Part shown: positions 11,320 to 59,544 of the stretch, piece after piece
How the letters are laid out: each line of letters begins with the position of its first letter
Numbering within the stretch: the first letter of the stretch is position 1
Source: an uncultured delta proteobacterium
Lineage (GTDB): Bacteria > Desulfobacterota > Binatia > UBA9968
Direction: 5' to 3'
Length of the DNA stretch: 64,000 bases
Assembly: GCA_963816145.1 (NCBI GenBank)
Contig: CAWFJP010000013.1
Span: 160,001 to 224,000, forward strand
The notes under the pieces: model-generated
The model's database searches: none
Seen by the model: the letters and a program-made list of their open reading frames with translations, nothing else
What the model was told of the DNA's origin: nothing
Position numbers and translations under genes: made by a program

Positions 11320-11481
11320 TCAGTCGCCGTCGCTCAGTTGCTCTTTGAGCTCGCGGCGCAACCCAGCTTTGGCGCGCTTACGCAAAACGTCTTTCTTGTT
11401 CTGCAAGATTTTCCCCGGCGGCGGCAGGTCTTTGCGGACTTTCGCTAGGCCGATGGGGATCTTTTTCGCCGCTGGACTCAA
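11320..11481 (-). CDS. small basic protein, 53 aa (not in the ORF track)
   Basis: TTG start overlapping the clpB stop, GAGGA 7 nt upstream; [53 protein letters not shown]; ends before the terminator. Confidence 0.65.
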
Positions 11482-14108
11482 TGCAGGGTCCTCTGCTCCA
11501 ACGTCTCGGTGCTTGCCGCCGGCTGACCGTGGGTGAACGCTAGCTCGTCGTCTTCGACCTCCACTTTCACGGTGTCGCCTTCCTTGAACTCCCCGGCAAG
11601 GATCTTAACCGCCAGCGGGTCCTGAATCAATCGCTGAATCGTGCGTTTGAGCGGGCGCGCGCCGTACACCGGATCGTAACCCTTTTCGGCGAGCAAGGCT
11701 TTGGCCGGCTCGGCGATCTCCAAGGCCATCTTGCGGTTTGCCAAGTTCTGGCGCAACCGCTTGAGCTGAATGTCGACGATCGACTTGATCTCGTCGCGGC
11801 CGAGGCTGCTAAAAATGATCGTCTCGTCGACCCGGTTCAAAAATTCCGGCTTGAAGGCTTCGCGCAGGGCGTTGCCGACGAGCTGTTCCATCTGCTTGCG
11901 ATCTTTTTTGCCGCCCAGTTCTTGTATGAACTGGCTGCCGAGATTCGAAGTCATGATGATGACGGTATTCTTGAAATCGACGGTGCGTCCCTGGCCGTCG
12001 GTCATGCGGCCGTCTTCGAGCACCTGCAAGAGCGCATTGAACACGTCGGGGTGGGCCTTCTCGATTTCATCGAAGAGCACCACGGAGTAAGGCCGGCGGC
12101 GCACCGCTTCGGTCAGTTGTCCGCCCTCATCATAGCCGACGTAGCCTGGAGGGGCGCCGATCAGCCGCGATACGGAGTGTTTTTCCATATACTCCGACAT
12201 ATCGAGGCGGACCATCGCCTGTTCGTCGTCGAAGAGAAACTCGGCCAATGCCCGGCAAAGTTCGGTTTTACCGACCCCGGTAGGTCCGAGAAAGATAAAC
12301 GAGCCGATCGGCCGATTCTGATCCTGCAGGCCGGCGCGGGCTCGGCGCACAGCATTGGACACGGCGATGATCGCATTTTCCTGGCCGACCACGCGGAGCT
12401 TCAACCGGTCTTCCATCTTGAGCAGCTTCTGCACCTCGCCTTCGAGCATCTTCGAAACTGGAATGCCGGTCCATTTGGCGACCACTTCGGCGATGTCCTC
12501 GGCGTCGACTTCTTCCTTGAGCATCTTTTGATGGGTTTGCAATTCGGCGAGTTTCCGATTGACGGCTTCGCTTTCTTTCTGCAGTTGGCTCAAGGTGCCG
12601 TAGCGCAGCTCGGCGGCCTTGTTGAGATCGCCTACCCGTTGAGCTTTTTGTTCTTCGATTTTGGTCGCTTCGATCTTTTCTTTGATCGCGCGCAGCTGTT
12701 GGATCGCCGCTTTTTCATTCTGCCAATGGGCTTTGAGGCCGGTCGAAGTCTCTTTCAAATTGTGAATTTCCTGTTCGAGGTGAGCCAAGCGCTCCTTCGA
12801 GGCTTTGTCCTCTTCACGCTTGAGCGCCTGGCGTTCGATTTCCAGCTGCATGATTTTGCGCTCGACCTCGTCGATCTCGATGGGCATGCTGTCGATTTCA
12901 ATTCTCAATCGCGAGGCTGCTTCATCGATTAAATCGATGGCTTTGTCCGGCAAGAAGCGGTCGCTGATATAGCGGTGCGACAACGTCGCCGCGGCGATGA
13001 TCGCCGGGTCGGTAATGCGCACGCCATGATGGACTTCGTAGCGTTCCTTCAAGCCGCGCAGGATGGCGATGGTGTCTTCAACCGAAGGCTCGCCGACGTA
13101 GACTTGTTGAAAGCGCCGTTCCAGCGCCGGATCCTTTTCCACTCGTTTGCGGTATTCGTCCAGGGTTGTCGCCCCGACGCAGCGCAGCTCGCCGCGCGCC
13201 AACGCCGGCTTTAACATGTTCGACGCGTCCATGGCGCCTTCGGCCGCGCCGGCGCCAACCAGCGTGTGCAGCTCATCGATGAACAACACGATCTGGCCGT
13301 TGGCTTCGGTGACTTCTTTCAATACGGCTTTGAGCCGGTCTTCAAACTCGCCGCGAAATTTTGCCCCGGCGACCAGGGCGCTGAGGTCCAGAGAGATCAG
13401 CTTTTTGTCCTTCAATCCTTCGGGCACATCGCCGTTGACGATGCGCAACGCGAGGCCTTCGACGATGGCGGTTTTGCCGACGCCCGGTTCGCCGATCAGC
13501 ACCGGATTGTTCTTGGTGCGGCGCGACAACACTTGGATGACCCGGCGAATTTCATCGTCACGGCCGATCACCGGATCGAGCTTGCCCTTGCGCGCCAGGT
13601 CGGTGAGGTCGCGGCCGTACTTTTCCAACGCTTGATATTTTTCTTCTGGATTCGGATCGGTGATGCGCTGGGAGCCGCGAATGCTGACCAGGGCGCCGAG
13701 AATTTTATCCCGGGTCGCGCCTAGCTCTTTGAGAACTTTACCGGTTTCACCTGTGTCTTGCACCATGGCGAGGAGCAAATGCTCGGTGGAAACATAATCG
13801 TCTTTTAGTGTTTCCGCTTCGGCTTCGGCGCTTTCGATGATTTTCTTGAGCCGTGGCGTGATATAGCTTTGCCCGCTGGTGCCGGTCACTTGGGGCAGGC
13901 GGTCCAGGGCCTTTTGCAGCCGGTCGGTCAACTGGGTCAGCGGCACGCCGAGTTTTTGCAGCAACGACAAGACCACCCCTTCCTTCTGTCCTAACAGTGA
14001 AAAAAGCAGGTGTTCGGCGTCGAGGGCCTGGTGGTTGCGCTTGTCGGCAAGGGATTGGGCTTCGCGCAATGCTTCTTGGGATTTGGTGGTTAGTTTTTCT
14101 AAACGCAT
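11478..14108 (-). CDS. clpB: ATP-dependent chaperone ClpB
   Basis: Two AAA+ modules ([16 protein letters not shown]), LDPVIGRD, long M-domain, no ClpP-binding IGF loop evident. Confidence 0.97.
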
Positions 14109-14355: not shown

Positions 14356-15138
14356 CTAGTTTCGCGGCTTGGTTGGATCGAAGTATTCGAACATCGGCGC
14401 CGGTGAACTTGCCGCAGCCGGCGCCGATTCGGGCCGGTCAATGACAATTCCCCGGTCCTGCTGCAGCGTGAACTTATGTTTTACGGGTGTGATGGCGACA
14501 CCGCGCATTTTCTTAACGGTCACGGTGCGCTCATAGCCGGCTGCGCTTTCGGTCATCTTAAAGATTAACACGCCAGCGGCGAGATGCTCTTCGATCCCAA
14601 CAGTGGCACTCTGCGCGCCGTCGGGGCAGCGCTGCGCGGTGAAAAGGTTGGTGACGCCGATTTGAGTTTGCACCAATTGAATCAGCGAGCGCGCTTGGTC
14701 CTGTGGTGGACTGGTCACGTCCGGGGGGAGGATGAACGGTGTTACCGGATCGATAATCAGCAGCGTCGCGCCCAACCGTCTGACATAGTTGCCAAGATCG
14801 GCGACGATTTTTTGTGGATCGATGCCTTTTTCGCCGCCGCCGCGGGCGCCGAAATAAGGCGCGGCGTCGAGGACGATCAATTGTTTGTCTTGGATATAGG
14901 GTTGCAGGTTCCAGCCCAAAGCTGCGGCGGACTCCAAGATCTCCGAAGGCCGCTCATCGACGGTAACGTAGACCGCCTTATCGCCCTCTTTCAGGCGAAT
15001 TGCGACGAACTGCAAACAGGCGATGGTTTTGCCCGTGCCCGCTTCGCCGGCGAACAGATACGTGCGTCCGCGGTTGAACCCACCATTCAGCAATGTATCC
15101 AAGCCGGCGATGCCGGTGGAGATTCGCTCGTTGCTCAT
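14356..15138 (-). CDS. KaiC/GvpD/RAD55-family RecA-superfamily ATPase, single domain
   Basis: ISTGIAGLD, Walker A GEAGTGKT, YVTVDE, LLIIDP, KKMRG; start taken at ATG 15138. Confidence 0.9.
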   Translation of the reverse strand: MSNERISTGIAGLDTLLNGGFNRGRTYLFAGEAGTGKTIACLQFVAIRLKEGDKAVYVTVDERPSEILESAAALGWNLQPYIQDKQLIVLDAAPYFGARGGGEKGIDPQKIVADLGNYVRRLGATLLIIDPVTPFILPPDVTSPPQDQARSLIQLVQTQIGVTNLFTAQRCPDGAQSATVGIEEHLAAGVLIFKMTESAAGYERTVTVKKMRGVAITPVKHKFTLQQDRGIVIDRPESAPAAASSPAPMFEYFDPTKPRN

Positions 15139-15161
15139 AGGGAAAGATGTCCCGCGACCGG

Positions 15162-15890
15162 CTAACGTGTCGGCTGAATCACTAAACCTTCGCCCTTGAC
15201 GATGTCGAACTCCAATTGCGTCGGCTTGACGTTGGTGCAGCGCATTTTTTCGACGATCAGGCTGCGCGCCAGCTGGCCATCGTTGCGCCAAATCATTTCC
15301 AGGACGATGGCCCCCGCGACCATATATTCTTCGACGCCATGCATGCTGCGCTCGCCGGTTCGCGGCACGGCGTAGGAAGTGAGAACGTTGGTGGTGGCCA
15401 TCGAAGAACGCAGCAATTTGATCAGTAAGCGGCTCTGATCCTGGATCCGTGTTGCGACGTCGCGCAATAGGACAAACGGTCCGGCGGGATCGAGGACCAA
15501 ACGCTCGGCACTGACTTGATTGACGAAGGCGGCCAAGTCGCTCACCGCTTTTTGCAGGTCGATCTGGCGTTCGCGGCCGGTACCGGGAAGCGAACTCAAG
15601 TAAGTCCCGGCGTTAAGGATCGCCAACTCTTTGGTCTCGACATAGCGCTCGAAGTCCCAACCGAGGGAAGCCGCCTGTTCGAGGATGTCCAGCGGGCCTT
15701 CGTCGGCGGTAACGAAGACACCTTTCTCACCGCGCGCCAGTCCCTCGGCGAGAAACTGCAGGGCGAAGATGGTCTTGCCGGTTCCCGGCTCGCCGGTCAC
15801 AAGAATCGAACGACCCTTGGGAAAGCCGCCTTCGATCAATGGGTCCAAGCCCTTGATCCCACTGGTTACCCGTTCTGTTTGTATCATCAT
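15162..15890 (-). CDS. KaiC/GvpD/RAD55-family RecA-superfamily ATPase, single domain
   Basis: VTSGIKGLD..GGFP, Walker A GEPGTGKT, FVTADE, RLVLDP, GVEEY, EKMR. Confidence 0.92.
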   Translation of the reverse strand: MMIQTERVTSGIKGLDPLIEGGFPKGRSILVTGEPGTGKTIFALQFLAEGLARGEKGVFVTADEGPLDILEQAASLGWDFERYVETKELAILNAGTYLSSLPGTGRERQIDLQKAVSDLAAFVNQVSAERLVLDPAGPFVLLRDVATRIQDQSRLLIKLLRSSMATTNVLTSYAVPRTGERSMHGVEEYMVAGAIVLEMIWRNDGQLARSLIVEKMRCTNVKPTQLEFDIVKGEGLVIQPTR

Positions 15891-15965
15891 CGTCCTTCGC
15901 TTTGCTGCTGTTTTTGCGTCACGGTTCGATCGCCTTGCGGTTGCTACGGCATATTCTCGAAGGTG

Positions 15966-18900
15966 CTATGAGCGCCAGCGCCGTTTCCAGCCAAAACCGC
16001 TTTGCCAACGCCGTCCTGACGGCGCTGGATAGCTGGTATCGTCGCCGGAGCGGACCGCTTTGGCCAGGTCATCGAGTTTGCGCAATTGTTCCCGCTGTGC
16101 CTCGGTCAAGTTAGGTTCGCCCATGACAAATGCGCCGTCGACCGGTGCGGCTGGGTGTTCCTTCTCCGCAAGCTGTTGGCGCAAGGATTCGATTTGTTGG
16201 CGATGTTCTTGCTCTATCCCGGCAATGATCGCCTGGCGCTCTTCCAGAGCCCATTCTTTTTGACTGAGTTCGGCTTGCAGCAGGGCCAATTGCGCCTGGT
16301 ATTCCGTACGCATGCGCTCGGCATCGTCGCTGGCACTGCTTTCGGCTTGAATGGCGTTTGTCTGCAGCTGCGTGAAGCGCTCGCTCAAGCTGTCCAGTTC
16401 ACCTTTAACCCGCACCAACTCGTCGTTGCGGTTATGCAGAATTTGATTGCGTTCTTGGGCTTCGCCGATCAGCCGGTCGATCTGGCTACGGAGCGCCTGC
16501 TCGATGTCGGAACTAATGCCGACGCGGTCGTGAAGCTGGGCGGCGTTATCGGCGAGCTCGTGGCTGAGCGCATCGACCCGCGCTTGATATTCTTGGCGCA
16601 GTTGTTCGGTCCGGCTGTTGGCGCTTAGTTCACCCTGCTGCAACGCGGCTTGCAGTTCTTCGACGCGGCCTTGCAATAGGGAGATTTGCGCTTGCGCCTG
16701 GTCGATTTCCCGCCGCCGTTCTTCACTGGACCTTTGAATTTCGCTCAGATTGGCTTCAAGTTGTTCAACCTGGCTGCGATGACGCGCGGCCAGGTCATCG
16801 ATGGCCGATTGTTGTTTCATTGCGGCCGCGGATTTCTGTTGTAGCTCGTCGCGCAGGCTCGCGAGGTCGCTCTCCAGACTAGATTTGGCCTGGCTGATTT
16901 CGCGCGCTTCGCTTTCGGTGCGCGCGGTGAACGATTCCAACTGCATGATGCGATTCTGAACCGCCGTCATTTCCGCGCGGAGGCGGTCGAGTTCATCCTC
17001 ACGGCTTTGCAGCGCCGCCGTGCGCGAGTGCATTTCGTTATTGAGGCGGGTGATCTCGGCGCGCAGGCTTTCCTCGACGTTGGCCCGTACCGCGCCGCTC
17101 TTGGCCAACTCCGCCGACTTGGCGGCCAGCAAGGCGTTGGCGCTGTCCAAACGAACCGCGTATTCCTGGCGAATCTGTTCAACTTGGCTAGCGCCGGCAG
17201 CCTGGGTTTGCCGCAGTTCGGCACGGAGTTCTTCGACCTGCTGCTGCGAGGCGTCAGCTTGACTGAGAGCTTGCTCCAGTTCGCGAGTCTGCCGTTCGGT
17301 GACCGGTTGTGACTCGCTTAGCCGCGCTTCCAATTTTCGGATTTGCTCGCGGTGGACCTGTGCGAGGTTTTCGACACTCGCCTGCTGCTGTGCCAGCGAC
17401 CAGGCTTTTTGCTGCAACTCGCCGCGCAGCTCAGTGAGTTCGGTTTCCAAGGCTTTGCGCACCTCCGCGAGTTCGCTGGCAGCCTCCGCCTTGCTCCTGT
17501 CATGGAGCGTTTCGATCTCTTTGAGAGAACTGCGCAATCGGGCGTGATCGGAATCGATCGCCGCCTTGGCGGCTTCACTGCTTTGCAGAAGCTCTTCAAT
17601 TTCGGCTGTACGGTTTTTCGCTTCTTGGAGTTCGCCACGCAGGCCGGCGTTGGCGCCGCGTGCCTGGTCGAGCTGAACCTCCAACGCGGTCTGGGCGCGG
17701 GAGAGCTCTTCGCGTGCGGCGCTTAACTGAGCGATCTGGTTGTTGTGTTGGGCCTCGGTGTTTTGCCAGAGGCCCAGAGCCTGCGCATAATGGTCGTCTT
17801 TTTCGCTGAGCTGCTCGCTCAGTTGACTGACGGTCGTTCTTAGGTCGCCGATTTCGTTAGCCCGGCTGTCGGCCAACAACTGTTTCTCGGCCAATTGTAG
17901 CTGGAGCTCGTTGACCCGGTTGGACAGTTGTTCGCTCTGACCGGTGGCGCTTGCGCGCAAGCCTTCGATCTCGTTATCCTTTTGTCTGAGCTCGGCTTCG
18001 AGGGCTTCACGGCTCGTGGCGAGCTCGGCATGGGCTTGGCGTACTTCGTCGCCGGCGCTCGCAGCAGAGCTGCGTTCCTGGGCCAGCTGCTGGTGCAGCG
18101 TGGCGATTTCCACGCCCAGGCGCGCTTCGAGGTCAGCGAAAGCGCGTTCACGCTCAGCGACTTGTAACCGCAAGTTTTCAACTTGCTGGGACAGCTGTTC
18201 GGTTTGTTTTGCAGTGTTTGCGCGCAGGCTGTCGATTTCGTTATCTTTGAGTTTGAGCTGAGCGTCGAGTCGTTCGCGGGTTGCATTGAGCTCAGCATGG
18301 GATTGTAGAAGCTCCTTGCTAGCCGTTGTCGCGCTGTTGCGTTCTTGCGCCAGCTGCTGGTGCAGCGTGGCAATTTCCACGCCCAGGCGCGCTTCGAGAT
18401 CGGCGGCGCTCCGTTGACGCTCAGCGAGTTGCAATCGCAAGTCGTCAACCTGCTTGGCCAGCTCTTCGGTTTGGCCTGCGGCGTTTGCGCGCAGGCTGTC
18501 GATTTCGCTGTCTTTGACTTTGAGCTGGACGGCGAGTGCTTCACGGGCTGCCGCGAATTCGGCTTGGCGTTGAACCAGCTCTTCCTGGGCGTGACCGGCG
18601 GCGCTCCGTTCTCGCGCCAATTGCTGGTGTAGCGCCTCAATTTCTGCGCGCAAGCGCGCGTCGAGGTCGGCGACGTGGCGCTCACGCTCGGAAAGTTGTT
18701 GCGCCAACTCGCCAACACGGTGTGACAGCTGCTCGGTTTCCTTGCTGGCGCTTGCGCGCAGATCGTCAATTTCGTTTTCTTTTTGGGCCAGCTGGGCCGC
18801 GAGTTGTTCGCGCGTCGCGGCGAGCGCGGCGTGAGCTTGGCGTACTTCGTCATTGGCGCTTGCAGCAGCGCTGCGTTCTTGCTCCAGCTGCTGTTGCAGG

Positions 18901-20291
18901 GTGGCGATTTCCGCGCCTAAGTTTGCTTCGATTTCACCGATGGCCCGCTCTCGCCCGGCCAGCAGGTACTCCTTCTGTGCCAAGTCGGCGCGCAGGCGAA
19001 TGAGATCGTTTTCCAGTTGCTGCCGGGCGCTATCGAGCAGACTGATGTCGGATTGAGCGCGTTCCAAATCAACGATGCGGCTTTGCAGGGCAGCGGTCTC
19101 GGCGCGGTGGCTTTGCAGCTCCGCTTCATGGGCGGTCGAGGCTTCATGCGCGCGGGCGAGTTCCTGTTGCAGCGCCTGAATGCGCCCGTGCAAGGCGAGC
19201 TCGACGGCGGTTACCGCTTCGTAGCGGTGCGTCAGTTCTTTTTCCTTGACCTCAACTTCATGCTGAAGATTCGCCACCTCTTCGGCCAGGGCGCGGCGAA
19301 TACTATCGATCTCTGCGCCGGCGGCCGCGGCCTGGCGGTGCGCCAATTCTAGATCGGCAACTCGCTGTTGGAGGGCGGCGATCTGTGTCCCGGCGGCGCG
19401 CAATTCGTCGTCACGAACCGCCAGATAGGCTTGTTTTTGCTCCAGCTCGTTGCGCAGTGTGGCGATCTCGCTTCTCAGGCCGCGCTCGATTTCCAACAAT
19501 GAGGTCTGGCTCTCCACGACCGTGCGGTCGCGTTCGGCCAGGGTGGTGCGCAGGCTCACCAATTCGCTTTCAAAACGGCCACGCGCCTGTTCGAGTTCGC
19601 GCGCCGCGTTCGCTTGCAGCTCATCTTGGAGCGCTTCGAGCGACCCCAGATGCTGGCGCAGCGCCGCGATCTCTTGTTGAGCCTTGCGCAACTCATCGGC
19701 GGTGCCGAAGGCGTTGGCTTGGTGCTCCGCGACTTGGTTTTCCAGCCGCTGCAACTGTTCGCGCAGGCCGCTTTCGATTTCCCGCCCGGCCAGTTGCTGT
19801 TGGTGAAACTCGCGTCGGTTTTTCGCCAATTCTTGATTGAGAGCAGCGATCTCCGCGCTAAGGCTTTCCCTGATCGCGTTGGTCTCGCGGGCGGCGCGCA
19901 CGGCCGCGTTATTCTCGCCTTCGAGCTGGTTGATGCGGTTTTGCAGCGCGATGATTTCGCTACTGGAGCGCTGGAGTCCGGCCTCATGTCCGGATAGGAG
20001 CTGTTGTTTCTCGTTGAGCTCGCGCTGGAGCTGCTCGACGGTTGAGCTCAGATTGCGGTCGACGGCGACGACTGGGCGCTCTTGCAGTTGTTTTTCTTTG
20101 GCGGCGAGATCGGCGCGCAGGATTGCCAGCTCGGATTCATAGTTCTCATGAAGGCGCGCTTTTTCATTCGCCGCGGTGGCCTGCGCTTGCTTGAGGTAGA
20201 GCTCCATCAGGCGAGTCTGCGCCAACAGGATGTCTATCTCGTTTAGCAGAAGAATCGCCGGATCGCTCTTTTGATATTTGGGTGTGTCCAT
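15966..20291 (-). CDS. giant coiled-coil protein (1,441 aa), function unknown
   Basis: E/Q/A/L/R-rich, nearly Pro-free helical sequence; no Walker motifs, signal peptide or TM helix; W/R-rich C-terminal tail. Confidence 0.85.
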   Translation of the reverse strand: MDTPKYQKSDPAILLLNEIDILLAQTRLMELYLKQAQATAANEKARLHENYESELAILRADLAAKEKQLQERPVVAVDRNLSSTVEQLQRELNEKQQLLSGHEAGLQRSSSEIIALQNRINQLEGENNAAVRAARETNAIRESLSAEIAALNQELAKNRREFHQQQLAGREIESGLREQLQRLENQVAEHQANAFGTADELRKAQQEIAALRQHLGSLEALQDELQANAARELEQARGRFESELVSLRTTLAERDRTVVESQTSLLEIERGLRSEIATLRNELEQKQAYLAVRDDELRAAGTQIAALQQRVADLELAHRQAAAAGAEIDSIRRALAEEVANLQHEVEVKEKELTHRYEAVTAVELALHGRIQALQQELARAHEASTAHEAELQSHRAETAALQSRIVDLERAQSDISLLDSARQQLENDLIRLRADLAQKEYLLAGRERAIGEIEANLGAEIATLQQQLEQERSAAASANDEVRQAHAALAATREQLAAQLAQKENEIDDLRASASKETEQLSHRVGELAQQLSERERHVADLDARLRAEIEALHQQLARERSAAGHAQEELVQRQAEFAAAREALAVQLKVKDSEIDSLRANAAGQTEELAKQVDDLRLQLAERQRSAADLEARLGVEIATLHQQLAQERNSATTASKELLQSHAELNATRERLDAQLKLKDNEIDSLRANTAKQTEQLSQQVENLRLQVAERERAFADLEARLGVEIATLHQQLAQERSSAASAGDEVRQAHAELATSREALEAELRQKDNEIEGLRASATGQSEQLSNRVNELQLQLAEKQLLADSRANEIGDLRTTVSQLSEQLSEKDDHYAQALGLWQNTEAQHNNQIAQLSAAREELSRAQTALEVQLDQARGANAGLRGELQEAKNRTAEIEELLQSSEAAKAAIDSDHARLRSSLKEIETLHDRSKAEAASELAEVRKALETELTELRGELQQKAWSLAQQQASVENLAQVHREQIRKLEARLSESQPVTERQTRELEQALSQADASQQQVEELRAELRQTQAAGASQVEQIRQEYAVRLDSANALLAAKSAELAKSGAVRANVEESLRAEITRLNNEMHSRTAALQSREDELDRLRAEMTAVQNRIMQLESFTARTESEAREISQAKSSLESDLASLRDELQQKSAAAMKQQSAIDDLAARHRSQVEQLEANLSEIQRSSEERRREIDQAQAQISLLQGRVEELQAALQQGELSANSRTEQLRQEYQARVDALSHELADNAAQLHDRVGISSDIEQALRSQIDRLIGEAQERNQILHNRNDELVRVKGELDSLSERFTQLQTNAIQAESSASDDAERMRTEYQAQLALLQAELSQKEWALEERQAIIAGIEQEHRQQIESLRQQLAEKEHPAAPVDGAFVMGEPNLTEAQREQLRKLDDLAKAVRSGDDTSYPAPSGRRWQSGFGWKRRWRS
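17890..18960 (-). repeat. four tandem 267-bp (89-aa) intragenic repeats
   Basis: The EI(A/E)(T/A)L.QQL..ER anchor recurs at 18106, 18373, 18640 and 18907, exactly 267 nt apart; outer limits approximate. Confidence 0.85.
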
Positions 20292-20370: not shown

Positions 20371-20386
20371 AGCCAAAAACATGCCA
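20371..20386 (-). promoter_or_regulatory. candidate sigma-54 promoter (-24/-12)
   Basis: TGGCATGTTTTTGGCT = GG-N10-GC, 80 nt upstream of the coiled-coil gene; IHF-like AATCAGATAGTTA at 20411-20423. Confidence 0.5.
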
Positions 20387-20638
20387 TTGATAGAAACTAG
20401 AGTCGTTAAAAATCAGATAGTTATGATTATCCCGAAAGAGCAATTTAGCAAAGACTACTGCAAGACAGATGATTTCTGGACATATTCGGGAATTGCTGGA
20501 CAAAAATGTCTTCGTGGGAGTCTGAACGCCTTCGTTTCTGTTCGGATGACGCCGGCGGCAAAATCGCGCATTCATAAGACCGTATTGTCCCATGCAGGGA
20601 TTTGAAATGCCGCTAGGCTGTCGTTAGAATCCGGCGTC

Positions 20639-52245: not shown

Positions 52246-53319
52246 TTACGACCCCGCGCCGCCAAACCATTTGGCGTAGAGCAAGTCGTAGGTGCCGTTC
52301 TCTTTCAATTTGAGCAAGGCTTCGTTGACCCGTTTGCGCAGCGGGCTTTGGTCGGGAAAGGCGATGCCGTAGTTTTCCTTGCGAAAGATCGCGCCGACCG
52401 TTTGGAATCGCCCCTTGCCTTCGTGGGAGGCGAAGTGGAGCAGCACCGGCGCGTCGTAGACCACGGCGTCCAGTTGGCCATGTTGCAGCGCCGGATAGGC
52501 GTCTTCAACTTTGGCGTAATCCATCGCTTCGATGTTGTGCTGGCGCAGGTATTCGCTGGCGGTGCTGCCTTTGACGCTGGCGATGCGTTTGCCGGGCAGA
52601 TCTTCGGGGCCGTTAATGTCGCTGCGCAATTGTTGCAAGGTTAGATTGGAAGTGACGGCGGCGGTGAAGTAGGCGATGAACACGACGCTGGCGAACATCC
52701 AAAACACCGCAACCATGCGGGCCAGGGCGGCGCGCGGCATTTGGTCGGCCTGGGTGGCGAGGGTCGATGCCGCCCACCAGCAAACTTCGAAGATGCCTGG
52801 AAAGTATTTTTTATGGGTCAACATGCCGCTCGGATGGCGCTGTTCAAACCACCAAACTAAATGGGCGATGACGAGCAGGATCAAAGCTACGCCCAAAACG
52901 TAGGGTACCACCGCGGCTGAAAACAGATTGGCAAGGATCGATCGGATCAAGGCGGTTCGGTCGCCCCGAACCGGCGCGAGGATTTGCAGACCGGCGTCGA
53001 ACATCGGCTGCGAGAAGTCCAATTCCAGCTCGCGCTCCGCGGTGATAGAAATCGCCGCGATGCCCAGCGCCGCCTGCTGCGACTTCAGCGCATCCAACAA
53101 CTCTTTCACGGTCGGCTTGACCATGAAATCGGATTTGACGTTCATCTGCTTGGCGATCTCGTCCCAGAGTTCGACGCTGAAGCCGGTAAGCTTGCCTTTT
53201 TCTTCAAATACGAAGGGTTTGACGATGCGCGTGGCGACCCGGAGCGGTCCTCCCGCCGATTGGGCGAAGGCGTTGGAAGCCGCGCAACAAGCGATGACCA
53301 GTGCGAAAAGCCAGTTCAT
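52246..53319 (-). CDS. prokaryotic glutamate-receptor-like ligand-gated ion channel (SBP S1-M1-P-M3-S2)
   Basis: KPFV..GFSVELW, AAISITAERE..DFSQP; TM helix, WWAASTLAT pore, AYFTAAVTSNLT; VYDAPVL, ENYGIAF. Confidence 0.88.
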   Translation of the reverse strand: MNWLFALVIACCAASNAFAQSAGGPLRVATRIVKPFVFEEKGKLTGFSVELWDEIAKQMNVKSDFMVKPTVKELLDALKSQQAALGIAAISITAERELELDFSQPMFDAGLQILAPVRGDRTALIRSILANLFSAAVVPYVLGVALILLVIAHLVWWFEQRHPSGMLTHKKYFPGIFEVCWWAASTLATQADQMPRAALARMVAVFWMFASVVFIAYFTAAVTSNLTLQQLRSDINGPEDLPGKRIASVKGSTASEYLRQHNIEAMDYAKVEDAYPALQHGQLDAVVYDAPVLLHFASHEGKGRFQTVGAIFRKENYGIAFPDQSPLRKRVNEALLKLKENGTYDLLYAKWFGGAGS

Positions 53320-53411
53320 TCTATCTACCTCGGGAAATTGCCAAATTGCGATCGGGCGAATGGCCGCCACCACCGGAGGTAACAGGAGCGAGCTTGACGG
53401 TCAAATGAAAT

Positions 53412-55937: not shown

Positions 55938-57161
55938 ATGCAAGCCATTCTCCGAGACTGCCGACAGGGCAAACTTTTATCCCGTGCCGAGGCCTTAACG
56001 TTTGTGGACGCTGATGGCGATCGACTGCGGGAACTGCTGGCAACGGCGGCTGAGCTGCGCGATCAGCACAAGGGCCGGACGGTTACCTTCTCGCCGAAGG
56101 TATTCGTGCCGCTCACCAATCTATGCCGAGATTTTTGCGGTTATTGCACCTTCCGCAAGGCGCCCGGTGAGCCGGGCGCGAAAACCATGACGTTGGCTGA
56201 AGTGTTGCGCGTGGTGCGGCAAGGCAAGGCGATGGGCTGCACGGAAGTACTGCTCAGCCTCGGCGACAAACCTGAGGCCATTTACCCCGAGATGAAACAG
56301 TTCTTAACCGAGCATGGTCATCAGCGTACCCTCGACTATCTCCACGAGGTCTGCCGCAGGGTCCTCGAAGAAACTGGCCTCTTGCCCCATGCCAACGCCG
56401 GCGTCATGGGACGGGGCGATTTGCAGCGATTGAAGGAAGTGAATCCAAGCATGGGGCTGATGCTCGAAAGCATCAGCGAGCGCCTAATGCTTGCTGGCGC
56501 TGCTCACGATAACGCCCCCGATAAGAAGCCGGCGGTGCGGCTGCGCACGTTAGAGCTGGCCGGCGAGCTGCGCATTCCATTTACCACCGGCATTCTCATC
56601 GGCATCGGCGAAGACTGGTCGGAGCGGATCGATTCTTTGCTGGCGATTCGCGATTTGCATGACCGCTACGGACATATTCAAGAAGTGATCGTGCAGAACT
56701 TCCGCGCCAAGCCGACGATTCCCATGCGCGCTCATCCCGATGCGGCACGGAGCGACATGATCAAGACAATTGCGCTCGCTCGATTAATCCTCGGCGGCGC
56801 GATGAACATCCAAGCGCCGCCCAATCTGACGCCGGACGGTTATGAGCTCTATTTGGACGCCGGCATCAACGACTGGGGCGGCGTGTCGCCGCTGACGCCC
56901 GACTTCATCAACCCAGAGGCGCCTTGGCCGGCGCTGCGCTTGCTCCAAGAAAAAAGCGCCCAGGCGGGATTCGAGTTAAAAGCGCGGCTGCCGATCTATC
57001 CAGAATATATTCGCCAGGGTGACAAGTATCTGCCGCCGAGTCTGCGTTCGTTCATCGACCCGCTGTGCGATGCCGATGGCTTGGTCAAAAACGGCGGCCC
57101 ATTGGGCAATAACCCTACACTCCAACACTCCAGTACTCCAATTACCTCAGGGCCTTCCTGA
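55938..57161 (+). CDS. cofG: FO synthase subunit CofG (radical SAM)
   Basis: TFSPKVFVPLTNLCRDFCGYCTF, LPHANAG, GLMLE, FTTGILIGIGE, QAPPNL, DWGGVSP. Confidence 0.95.
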   Translation: MQAILRDCRQGKLLSRAEALTFVDADGDRLRELLATAAELRDQHKGRTVTFSPKVFVPLTNLCRDFCGYCTFRKAPGEPGAKTMTLAEVLRVVRQGKAMGCTEVLLSLGDKPEAIYPEMKQFLTEHGHQRTLDYLHEVCRRVLEETGLLPHANAGVMGRGDLQRLKEVNPSMGLMLESISERLMLAGAAHDNAPDKKPAVRLRTLELAGELRIPFTTGILIGIGEDWSERIDSLLAIRDLHDRYGHIQEVIVQNFRAKPTIPMRAHPDAARSDMIKTIALARLILGGAMNIQAPPNLTPDGYELYLDAGINDWGGVSPLTPDFINPEAPWPALRLLQEKSAQAGFELKARLPIYPEYIRQGDKYLPPSLRSFIDPLCDADGLVKNGGPLGNNPTLQHSSTPITSGPS

Positions 57162-58087
57162 TGCTGGTCGTTCTCACCGGCGGCACCGGCGGCGCCAAAT
57201 TGATCGAAGGCTTGGCTGCGGAAACCGATCCAGCGAAACTGGCGATCGTCTGCAACACCGGCGATGATGCGATCTTTCACGGCCTCTACGTCTCGCCGGA
57301 TATCGACACGATCACCTACACACTCGCGGGTTTAATCGATGCCGCGAAAGGTTGGGGTATCAAGGACGACACGTTTGCCGTGCTCGAACAGCTGCGCGGT
57401 CTCGGTAACGATGCATGGTTCAGCCTTGGCGACAAAGATTTGGCAACCCACATCACGCGGACCGAGTTGCTCAACAAAGGGCTGAAACTGTCCGAAGTGA
57501 CTGATCGCATGCGTCGCCAGCTCGGGGTTAAGTCGAAAATCCTCCCCATGACTGACGAGCGTGTCGAGACCCGCGTGCAGACGTTCCAGGGAGATATTTC
57601 GTTCCAGGAGTTTTTCGTCAAAGAGCGCTGGGCGCGCGACGTGAGTTCCGTTCGTTTCGTTGGCGCAGGATTGGCGAAGCCGGCGCCTGGTGTGCTGGAG
57701 TCGATTCAAAGTGCCGAGGCGATCATCATTTGCCCGAGCAACCCGATCACCAGCATCGGTCCGATTCTCGCGGTTCCGGGGATTCGCGACGCGCTCCAAC
57801 AATCTGGCGCGCCGGTCGTCGGTGTCAGTCCAATCATTGGCAGCGCGGCGATTTCCGGCCCGGCGCATAAACTGATGGTCGCCAGCGGCTTCGAGGCGTC
57901 CGCCATTGGCGTGGCAAGGTGCTACAAGGGATTTCTCGATACGCTGGTAATTGCTAACGAGGACTGCGCTTCCGGCCAGCTCGTCGAAGCGCTCAAAGTT
58001 GCGCCAGTCTGCGCCGACATACGCATGGAGGGCTTAGCCGACAAGAGGCGTTTGGCGCGCGAAGTCTTGGCCTGGGTCAAAAAATAG
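57161..58087 (+). CDS. cofD: 2-phospho-L-lactate transferase
   Basis: GGTGGAKL, NTGDD..GLYVSPDIDT, LGDKDLATH, FQEFFV, PSNPITSIGPIL. Confidence 0.95.
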   Translation: MLVVLTGGTGGAKLIEGLAAETDPAKLAIVCNTGDDAIFHGLYVSPDIDTITYTLAGLIDAAKGWGIKDDTFAVLEQLRGLGNDAWFSLGDKDLATHITRTELLNKGLKLSEVTDRMRRQLGVKSKILPMTDERVETRVQTFQGDISFQEFFVKERWARDVSSVRFVGAGLAKPAPGVLESIQSAEAIIICPSNPITSIGPILAVPGIRDALQQSGAPVVGVSPIIGSAAISGPAHKLMVASGFEASAIGVARCYKGFLDTLVIANEDCASGQLVEALKVAPVCADIRMEGLADKRRLAREVLAWVKK

Positions 58088-58105
58088 TCTAAGAATTTTC
58101 TTTCC

Positions 58106-58795
58106 ATGAATGTCGCCGCCCTCATGCCCGTGAAAGGTTTTCACAACGCCAAGCAACGCTTGAGTCCGCTGTTGAGCGGCGCGGCGCGGGAAATATTGGC
58201 GGAAACCATGTTCCGCGATGTGTTGCGCCAGGTGCGTTTGGCGCGCGGGCTTGTGGGAACTTTCGTGGTTACCGGCGACGATCAGGTTGCTGCGATCGCT
58301 TCGGCGGCCGGCGCGGAGGTGATCCGCGAGGACGCGGAGAACGGCGAGACCGGCGCCGTCGATTTCGCGCGCCGTGAATTGCAGCAGGAGGACTGCGAGG
58401 CGGTGCTGATTATTCCCGCTGATATGCCGCTCGTGAGAGCTGAAGATGTTGAAGCGGTGCTGGAGCAGGTTCCAGTCGGCGCTCTGGCGCCCTACGCGCT
58501 TTTAGTCCCGTCCCACGACAAGCTCGGCACCAACGCGCTGCTTTTGGCGCCGCCGGATGTGATTCCACTGCGCTTTGGCCATGATAGTTTCACTTTTCAT
58601 TTGAGCCAGGTGAGGGCGCAAGGATTGCCGGCGCGATTTGTCGAGAATGAACGAATAGCCCTAGATATCGATGAGCCCAAGGATCTCGAACGGTTTCTCG
58701 CCTATGGATACCAAGGCGGCGAGTCGACGCGCGTGGCGCAGGAGCTGCTCGCCGCGCGCGTTACGCCAATCGGCGAAAGATCCGGTGGCGCATGA
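58106..58795 (+). CDS. cofC: 2-phospho-L-lactate/PEP guanylyltransferase
   Basis: PVKGFHNAKQRLS, PADMPL, GTNAL, FGHDSF..H, LDIDEPKDL. Confidence 0.93.
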   Translation: MNVAALMPVKGFHNAKQRLSPLLSGAAREILAETMFRDVLRQVRLARGLVGTFVVTGDDQVAAIASAAGAEVIREDAENGETGAVDFARRELQQEDCEAVLIIPADMPLVRAEDVEAVLEQVPVGALAPYALLVPSHDKLGTNALLLAPPDVIPLRFGHDSFTFHLSQVRAQGLPARFVENERIALDIDEPKDLERFLAYGYQGGESTRVAQELLAARVTPIGERSGGA

Positions 58796-59544
58796 AAAGA
58801 GTTGAGCTTATCGGCTTGGAGGGCATCGCCGAAGTTCATGCCGAAGATTCAGTCGGACAGCTGATCTGCGATGCCTGCGGGCGCCAGCAATTCGAACTTG
58901 TCGATGGCGATCTTCTGGTGGTGGCGCAGAAGATTGTTTCCAAAGCTGAAGGTCAGATGGTTGCGCTGGCAACCGTCCAGCCGTCGGCGCGGGCGCAGGA
59001 GCTGGCGCAGGAACTCGGCAAAGAGCCGGAACTGATCGAGGTCATTCTCGGCGAGAGCCGCAGAGTGATTCGCACCGGCGGACGGGCGATGGTCGTCGAA
59101 ACCCATCATGGCTTTGTCTGCGCCAATGCCGGCGTCGACCAGTCTAATGTCGGACTGAAGCAAGTTGCGCTGCTACCGAAAGATGCCGACCGCTCGGCGC
59201 GCGGGATTCGCGCTGAGATTCGGCGCCGGACGGGGAAAAACGTCGGCATCATCGTCAGCGATAGTTTCGGCCGGGCGTGGCGTCTCGGCACCGTGGATGT
59301 GGCGGTTGGGGTTGCCGGAATCAATCCGATCAAAGATGAGCGTGGTCTAAAAGATCGCCATGGTTATGAACTCAAAGCGGCGGTGGCGGCGGTTGCCGAT
59401 GAGTTGGCATCGGCCGCCGAGTTGGTTATGGGTAAGCGTGACGGTGTGCCTGTCGTCATCGTCCGTGGCTATGACATACAAATCAAGGAGGAAGGATCGG
59501 TGCAGGAGCTCTTGCGCCCCGAGGCGGAGGATCTTTTTCGCTAG
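58792..59544 (+). CDS. cofE: coenzyme F420-0:L-glutamate ligase
   Basis: QKIVSKAEG, HGFVCANAGVDQSN, DSFGRAWRLG, ADELASAAELVMGK, EDLFR. Confidence 0.95.
   Translation: MKRVELIGLEGIAEVHAEDSVGQLICDACGRQQFELVDGDLLVVAQKIVSKAEGQMVALATVQPSARAQELAQELGKEPELIEVILGESRRVIRTGGRAMVVETHHGFVCANAGVDQSNVGLKQVALLPKDADRSARGIRAEIRRRTGKNVGIIVSDSFGRAWRLGTVDVAVGVAGINPIKDERGLKDRHGYELKAAVAAVADELASAAELVMGKRDGVPVVIVRGYDIQIKEEGSVQELLRPEAEDLFR

Follow-up and report, generated by a model that had tools for sequence, protein, structure and literature searches.

Why should a bacterium encode a giant coiled-coil protein and two small KaiC-like ATPases side by side? The three genes lie in a 64,000-nucleotide stretch of DNA from an uncultured delta proteobacterium (GTDB lineage Bacteria; Desulfobacterota; Binatia; UBA9968; assembly GCA_963816145.1, contig CAWFJP010000013.1, positions 160,001 to 224,000), called the window below, whose numbering is used for all unprefixed coordinates. 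The open reading frames (ORFs) are all on the minus strand, in the order rod protein CC-A (20291-15966, 1441 aa), KaiC1 (15890-15162, 242 aa) and KaiC2 (15138-14356, 260 aa counted from ATG), with gaps of 75 nt between the rod and KaiC1 and 23 nt between KaiC1 and KaiC2. These coordinates agree with the co-orientation and spacing given in the first-pass annotation, a model's reading of the letters of the window. Sequence comparison indicates that the rod-KaiC unit is a real and conserved variant of KaiC-type signalling, not a clock, and likely an undescribed regulator tied to type IV pili and a chemosensory system. The function that we propose, with a confidence just short of an even chance, is that of a lineage-specific operon in which a long rod and a CI-type KaiC-like switch act on type IV pilus activity and chemosensory control.

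Both ATPases matched Pfam family PF06745 nearly from end to end (KaiC1 E = 6e-57, 193 bits; KaiC2 E = 3e-49, 168 bits; cut-off 26.6), as expected from their earlier description as stand-alone KaiC-like ATPases. Their mutual identity is 41%, and neither scored above the cut-off of any curated NCBIfam family. Alignment to the two halves of KaiC gave 124 bits for CI versus 41 for CII with KaiC1, and 108 versus 37 bits with KaiC2. Because both proteins are CI-like, the split CI-CII double ring that had been suggested for them is not supported. The structure model of KaiC1 (predicted local distance difference test, pLDDT, 84.7) had the KaiC CI domain as its top fold match (4tlb, template modelling score, TM, 0.83), and 2zts gave 0.80. 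KaiC1 (15162..15890) has an intact Walker A and KMR finger together with D63-E64 and D134-P135, and residues G33, G36, G38, K39, D134, K215, M216 and R217 were invariant in 20 aligned rows. KaiC2 (14356..15138), the CI-like paralogue that diverges faster, ends in an aromatic-acidic tail (FEYF).

The features by which the KaiC family is recognized were found here (PF06745 domain, fold in the case of KaiC1, Walker A, Walker B Asp and arginine finger) except for the catalytic Glu pair, the first Glu of which is Asp throughout the clade. The likeness to KaiC CI and to the archaeal single-domain proteins PH0186, PH0284 and SSO2452 lies in the fold, Walker A, arginine finger and GxEE motif; the differences, shared across the clade, are DE in place of the catalytic EE, DP in place of the Walker B DS and loss of the Asp after GVEEF, and there is no CII half. 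At the position of the EEF of CI, KaiC1 and KaiC2 have E-E-Y/H, and the CII phosphosites are absent. In KaiC CII the general base is described as E318 (bioRxiv 2021.03.19.436134), and the ATPase activity of proteins with the DE pair may be low.

In a quick tree of 81 rows, KaiC1, KaiC2, KaiC3 (from a second cassette described below) and proteins of the sister family formed one 63-row clade (SH-like approximate likelihood ratio test, SH-aLRT, 99); the tree is unrooted and leaves the branching order among the four groups unresolved. The DE/DP subfamily was present in 68 of the 69 genomes of the family, covering 21/21 genera, and in 3/5 sister-family genomes. In a class sample of 151 genomes, it was found in none of the 142 that lie outside the family. 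It nevertheless extends beyond this lineage: the DE/DP signature was carried by 33 domain matches in the best 150 representatives, and 3 of the 10 clusters checked had archaea-named members (Methanotrichaceae, Thermoproteota, Brockarchaeota). Named close homologues were mostly labelled Candidatus Binatia. In some relatives a separate double-domain KaiC of ~600 aa, outside the DE/DP clade, was seen near sensor kinase genes (loci L093-L097); none occurs in this genome.

The genome (7.8 Mb, 99.5% complete, 6.7% contamination) had no match to KaiA, KaiB or archaellin, with positive controls, so that the absence of kaiA and kaiB first reported for the window holds genome-wide. The gas-vesicle part of that report did not gain in the same way: a search for GvpA returned 0 matches with its control silent too, and the sole GvpD similarity in the Pfam scan was a 30-residue P-loop match. 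A KaiABC clock was rejected as the identity of the system, there being neither a tandem CI-CII protein nor a CI plus CII pair, and TIGR02655 scoring ~96 bits against a cut-off of 546.

The rod protein CC-A (15966..20291) is a headless coiled coil by its ORF, NCBIfam matches, periodicity and structure model. No Pfam family, and no P-loop family, scored above cut-off, and the SMC-type coiled-coil matches in NCBIfam were all below theirs (76 bits vs 567); an SMC/Rad50 identity was ruled out on this score and on the lack of an ATPase head domain. Residues 74-1379 contain one proline, and the hydrophobic period of the protein is 3.55. Residues 450-830 shifted against themselves gave 54% identity for an offset of 89 and 52% for one of 178, corresponding to four ~89-residue repeats at residues ~458-813 (17853..18920, minus strand; repeat starts read from the sequence). 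The structure model of the last 300 residues has a helix of 235 residues, a second, short helix and a flexible tail without structure.

The two ends of the rod are kept while its length is free. At the N-terminus a conserved segment (the LLLNEIDILLAQ region; 20112..20267, minus strand) had a mean column identity of 58% over 12 aligned rows and was found in 32 of the 69 family genomes, in 2 of them weakly. The C-terminus carries a basic, Trp-containing motif, RRW-x6-KRRW (15969..16013, minus strand); in 32 aligned rows both Trp and the Lys were invariant and four Arg were present in at least 90%. It stands ahead of KaiC1 in 37/44 rows, or 33/39 distinct loci once five duplicates are merged, with one more recognized by eye, and even a 93-aa rod remnant retains it. 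The motif is likely a docking element or membrane anchor. Intact-looking homologues span 93 to 1685 aa, and in several long-read assemblies the rod is split into pieces. Of the 71 long homologues, several are annotated as hypothetical proteins from Candidatus Binatia, and some carry automatic 'chromosome segregation' names. Prediction of a complex of three KaiC1 subunits, ATP and the last 60 rod residues scored 0.00, with controls that did not fold.

A sigma-54-type -24/-12 promoter motif, TGGCATGTTTTTGGCT, lies ahead of the rod gene at 20371..20386 (minus strand), with 1 match in the window and 0 in 100 shuffles; the motif is conserved in relatives, ~95 nt ahead of the rod. The assignment is based on the sigma-54 consensus GG-N10-GC; the -12 element is TGGC, not TTGC. 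Tandem TGTCC(A/G) words at 20476..20510 (minus strand), 116 and 96 nt before the promoter, form a candidate enhancer (upstream activating sequence) for a sigma-54 activator, and their spacing to the promoter is kept in relatives. Between the two, 20411..20423 resembles the IHF consensus (unscored), and AT-rich words akin to it were seen by eye at the equivalent place in relatives. With the motif, an upstream candidate enhancer and an rpoN gene in this genome all found, the rod-KaiC operon is likely sigma-54-driven. A position weight matrix (PWM) built from the sites of 35 relatives and scanned over the 7.8 Mb genome gave just two strong matches, this operon (53.7) and the second rod-KaiC3 operon (39.4); the next match scored 18.2. 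Scans for sigma-70 promoters and terminators gave chance-level results only. Metatranscriptome contigs from four sets covered the rod and ATPase genes in scattered low-depth pieces that carry no start, strand or level.

In relatives, the site between hisC, which is divergent upstream of the rod, and clpB carries a DE/DP KaiC in three forms. One consists of KaiC followed by a REC-KaiC fusion and usually by a REC-PAS-kinase (L118, L130, L139), another of a lone KaiC, and the third of rod-KaiC1 with or without KaiC2. KaiC, REC-KaiC and kinase genes also occur beside hisC in the sister family. Since the REC-KaiC and histidine kinase arrangement is found there and in several genera, it is probably the older one. 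Next to hisC, the loci L069 (6567-10403), L088, L089, L118 and L130 have an operon of KaiC, a REC-KaiC fusion whose KaiC domain is divergent, and a REC-PAS-histidine kinase. The clpB gene itself (11478..14108, minus strand; Pfam), co-oriented and 247 nt downstream of KaiC2, is the constant downstream neighbour. It is probably context and not part of the module, because it comes after each of the three architectures and does not adjoin the second cassette.

The linkage of the three genes in relatives thus held, though not as an obligate trio: both ATPases stand without a rod at three loci (L119, L133, L135), and KaiC2 is absent or a remnant at nine rod-bearing loci (L055, L057, L061, L062, L138, L141, L143, L144, L147). 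An obligate hetero-oligomer of the two ATPases, one form of the first-pass proposal, is unlikely because those nine loci keep the rod and KaiC1. The stable unit is sigma-54-type promoter, rod and KaiC1. The promoter and enhancer motif pair was found in 54 of the 213 loci examined (duplicates and two unrelated loci counted), including loci that lost the rod, and was not seen in the three KaiC-REC-kinase loci read. The simplest history would have the promoter and rod added onto a KaiC gene from a two-component operon. At one locus (L145, G201:C51) a broken rod fragment and a second KaiC1 copy lie behind a PilT-type ATPase gene, which could be a pseudogene or an assembly artefact.

The link to motility comes largely from a second cassette in the same genome, in which a 615-aa rod (CC-B) and KaiC3 follow the same type of promoter (G000:C4:153987-156659; L048 7988-10660). 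This cassette is divergent from a response regulator-cheD-cheA-cheW-methyl-accepting chemotaxis protein operon, the only CheW locus of the genome. Its rod was present in 18/19 genomes with an orthologous CheA (at least 56% identity) versus 5/50 others, counts for which 20 candidates were scored per genome and in which the genomes are related and not independent. In 5/6 genomes of genus g90, a small helix-turn-helix (HTH) gene and pilM are immediately preceded by the co-oriented cassette or its promoter, as rod plus KaiC3 (G217, G220), KaiC3 alone (G222) or promoter alone (G219, G221). One further genome, G203, has a CC-B-type rod at the hisC-clpB site, so the two rods may share an origin.

Type IV pilus genes are found throughout the family, with pilM in 66/69 genomes and pilA in 29/31; flagellin was found in 15/69. 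The present genome had no flagellin match, with a control that worked, and encodes pilB, pilC, pilA, pilM with downstream pil-type genes, and two PilT-type ATPases. Words similar to those of the rod operon, TGT(C/T)CA, also occur at pilM promoters, 90-130 nt before a sigma-54-type site. Of 30 pilM loci, 16 could be scored for this enhancer (10 were removed by a script filter and 4 had no site in range); the median was 6.5 with 7/16 at 8 or above, compared with -2.4 and 3/52 for sigma-54-like sites taken from this genome as controls. Leaving out one spurious site and two promoters of the cassette type gave a median of 6.4, with 5/13 at 8 or above. Six pilA promoters that were read have a common sigma-54-like site and a TTTGT(C/T) half-site. 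A conserved gene of ~66 aa, HTH-like by eye, lies ~200 nt before pilM (G000:C12; L172-L200) and in most relatives precedes pilM behind a sigma-54-type site. Between pilC and pilA, another gene encodes a PilS-like six-helix membrane domain, a PAS domain, a sigma-54 activator and a Fis HTH (G000:C17:251489-253540; L167 5490-7541; also L213 6751-8772). No kinase domain was found in its product, which from this domain order looks like a one-component PilS-PilR fusion and is a candidate regulator.

On these grounds the identity that we prefer, though tentatively, is an accessory of type IV pilus control comparable to ArlH or HmpF. In such a system, each physical step of which we infer, KaiC1 would bind ATP, form rings and hydrolyse slowly, since its catalytic Glu is replaced by Asp, and the ring would be a nucleotide-state switch acting on pilus or Che components. 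The rod would be a tether or polar scaffold anchored to the membrane or a partner via its basic, Trp-containing end, and the ring would contact a pilus or Che component in the way that ArlH contacts ArlI. KaiC2 may be a modulating subunit that the system can do without, and the activator may be the PilS-PilR-like fusion encoded beside pilA.

There are precedents for such a system. ArlH binds the pilus-type motor ATPase ArlI (bioRxiv 2021.03.19.436134), CirA of Haloferax is a single-domain KaiC-like motility regulator (PMC10983859), and archaeal pilus systems are accompanied by KaiC-family genes (PMC4858521). ArlH (FlaH), with ArlI and the scaffold ArlX of the archaellum, and CirA resemble the unit as single-domain KaiC-like regulators of a type IV pilus-family motor or of motility. 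ArlX is membrane-anchored, whereas CC-A on reading has no hydrophobic N-terminal segment, and unlike in the ArlH system the rod-KaiC genes of this genome lie outside the motor operon. An ArlH/FlaH identity was rejected for the ATPases, which scored 41.4 and 38.3 bits with that model against a cut-off of 215 in a genome lacking archaellin. HmpF of Nostoc punctiforme is a headless, SMC-like coiled coil whose gene often lies close to chemotaxis-like systems; it controls polar type IV pilus activity and links a Che-like system to pili (PMC12288463). The rods share with it the SMC-like headless coiled coil, and CC-B also a place near che genes; HmpF, however, is described as exclusive to cyanobacteria, and the available part of that review contains no KaiC term (PMC12288463). 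An HmpF model was not among the NCBIfam matches of CC-A (E 0.01) or CC-B (E 0.001), the presence of such a model in NCBIfam being unconfirmed. Archaeal KaiC-like signal-transduction ATPases include REC fusions and inactivated KaiC domains (Galperin et al. 2018, PMC5847659, citing Makarova et al. 2017). They are matched by the KaiC, REC-KaiC and histidine kinase genes at this locus in relatives; the present proteins differ in being bacterial, preceded by a sigma-54-type promoter and paired with a giant rod.

By the tests applied, none of ArlH, CirA and HmpF is of the same family as the rod or the ATPases. The unit was likewise unmatched in the libraries and undescribed in the literature searched, which was mostly judged from abstracts and whose survey supplements may list the DE/DP subfamily; the related papers concerned archaea, cyanobacteria or another phylum. 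The first-pass statement that no described system could be assigned therefore stands.

Several results weigh against a role in pilus control. No pilus or che gene is near the operon of the window, whose neighbours are hisC and clpB (Pfam), and most motility links belong to the paralogous second cassette, while homology between the N-termini of CC-A and CC-B was not detected (probability 1.8%). Pili are near-universal in the family but the CC-A start occurs in 32/69 genomes, so pili do not need the rod, and the rod and KaiC2 are themselves missing at three and nine loci. The promoter link is also uneven. With the strict PWM no pilus promoter was among the top genome matches, and the weaker link comes from relatives only; the pilM promoter of this genome scored only 5.0, the spacer of the pilA palindrome is one base longer than in the rod operon, and by the patterns used neither a sigma-54 nor a TGTCC site was found at the pilB promoter and no sigma-54 site in the pilT region. 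Related genomes, moreover, are non-independent samples.

Other explanations of the same genes were weighed. A headless, repeat-built coiled coil with conserved ends, its own conserved promoter and no motility gene adjoining its locus might be a cytoskeletal, cell-shape or developmental filament, with the KaiC proteins, possibly as mixed rings, controlling its assembly independently of pili. We consider this unlikely: a length range this wide and loss of the rod at three loci would be unusual for a load-bearing filament, KaiC2 is dispensable, and the paralogous cassette goes along with the che operon and pilM; the context points to pilus or chemosensory control rather than to a free-standing cytoskeleton. 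That the KaiC proteins are general signalling switches derived from a two-component operon, with the rod only co-transcribed from a shared promoter and making no contact, would fit the KaiC, REC-KaiC and REC-PAS-kinase genes at the same site in other genera and the sister family, the near-universal DE/DP subfamily in genomes with or without a rod, and a promoter that outlasts rod loss. This too seems rather unlikely, given that two different rods each stand directly ahead of a KaiC gene, that the end motif persists in the shortest remnant, and that the rod start is nearly always on the KaiC contig where contigs are long enough.

An Arg- and Trp-rich tail, SMC-like coiled-coil matches and 'chromosome segregation' names could instead suggest that the tail of the rod binds DNA or RNA, that the rod organises the nucleoid or deals with DNA entering the cell, and that the RecA-fold proteins are its loaders; pili serve DNA uptake too (PMC12288463). 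This is very unlikely, as the SMC matches are far below cut-off, the rod is headless, and the ATPases are KaiC-type with weak similarity to RadA/RecA. Least probable of all is a split circadian-type oscillator or a helper module for ClpB. The nearest solved structures are indeed KaiC and clpB is constantly downstream, but KaiA and KaiB are missing, both proteins are CI-like with E-E-Y/H for EEF and no CII phosphosites, and clpB follows every architecture and is absent beside the second cassette.

The pilus-regulator reading can be narrowed to a scheme that we regard as doubtful, in which the type IVa pilus recruited an archaeal-style KaiC switch from a two-component operon, under the pilus sigma-54 activator and with a length-tunable rod as polar tether, and coupled a chemosensory pathway to PilB/PilT as in ArlH-ArlI. 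If this is true, bacteria would have their own equivalent of ArlH in a setting other than the archaellum. Single-domain KaiC-like proteins have been proposed as signalling hubs, mostly with partners yet to be identified, and the tested cases in the sources consulted are archaeal motility regulators. Here a single locus offers natural experiments, in which KaiC comes with a REC fusion and a kinase, stands alone or accompanies rods of 93-1685 residues, and the series extends to a duplicate cassette tied to a che operon or pilM. The candidates for binding tests are short and defined (a 15-residue tail, a 240-residue ATPase and a named activator) and may help to study how an uncultured lineage of soils and wetlands moves on surfaces or attaches to them.

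Elsewhere in the window, positions 26845-48672 hold an ECF sigma factor, two Pfam-less proteins (207 and 778 aa) and a zf-HC2 anti-sigma-like protein, in one cluster with three large Ig-like repeat proteins and three CHAT (caspase-like) proteins, two of them with TPR repeats. An F420 biosynthesis cluster, consisting by Pfam of a radical SAM gene followed by cofD, cofC and cofE, is at 55938-59544, and a ligand-gated ion channel of the prokaryotic glutamate-receptor-like type (SBP_bac_3 and Lig_chan, Pfam) is encoded at 52246-53373.

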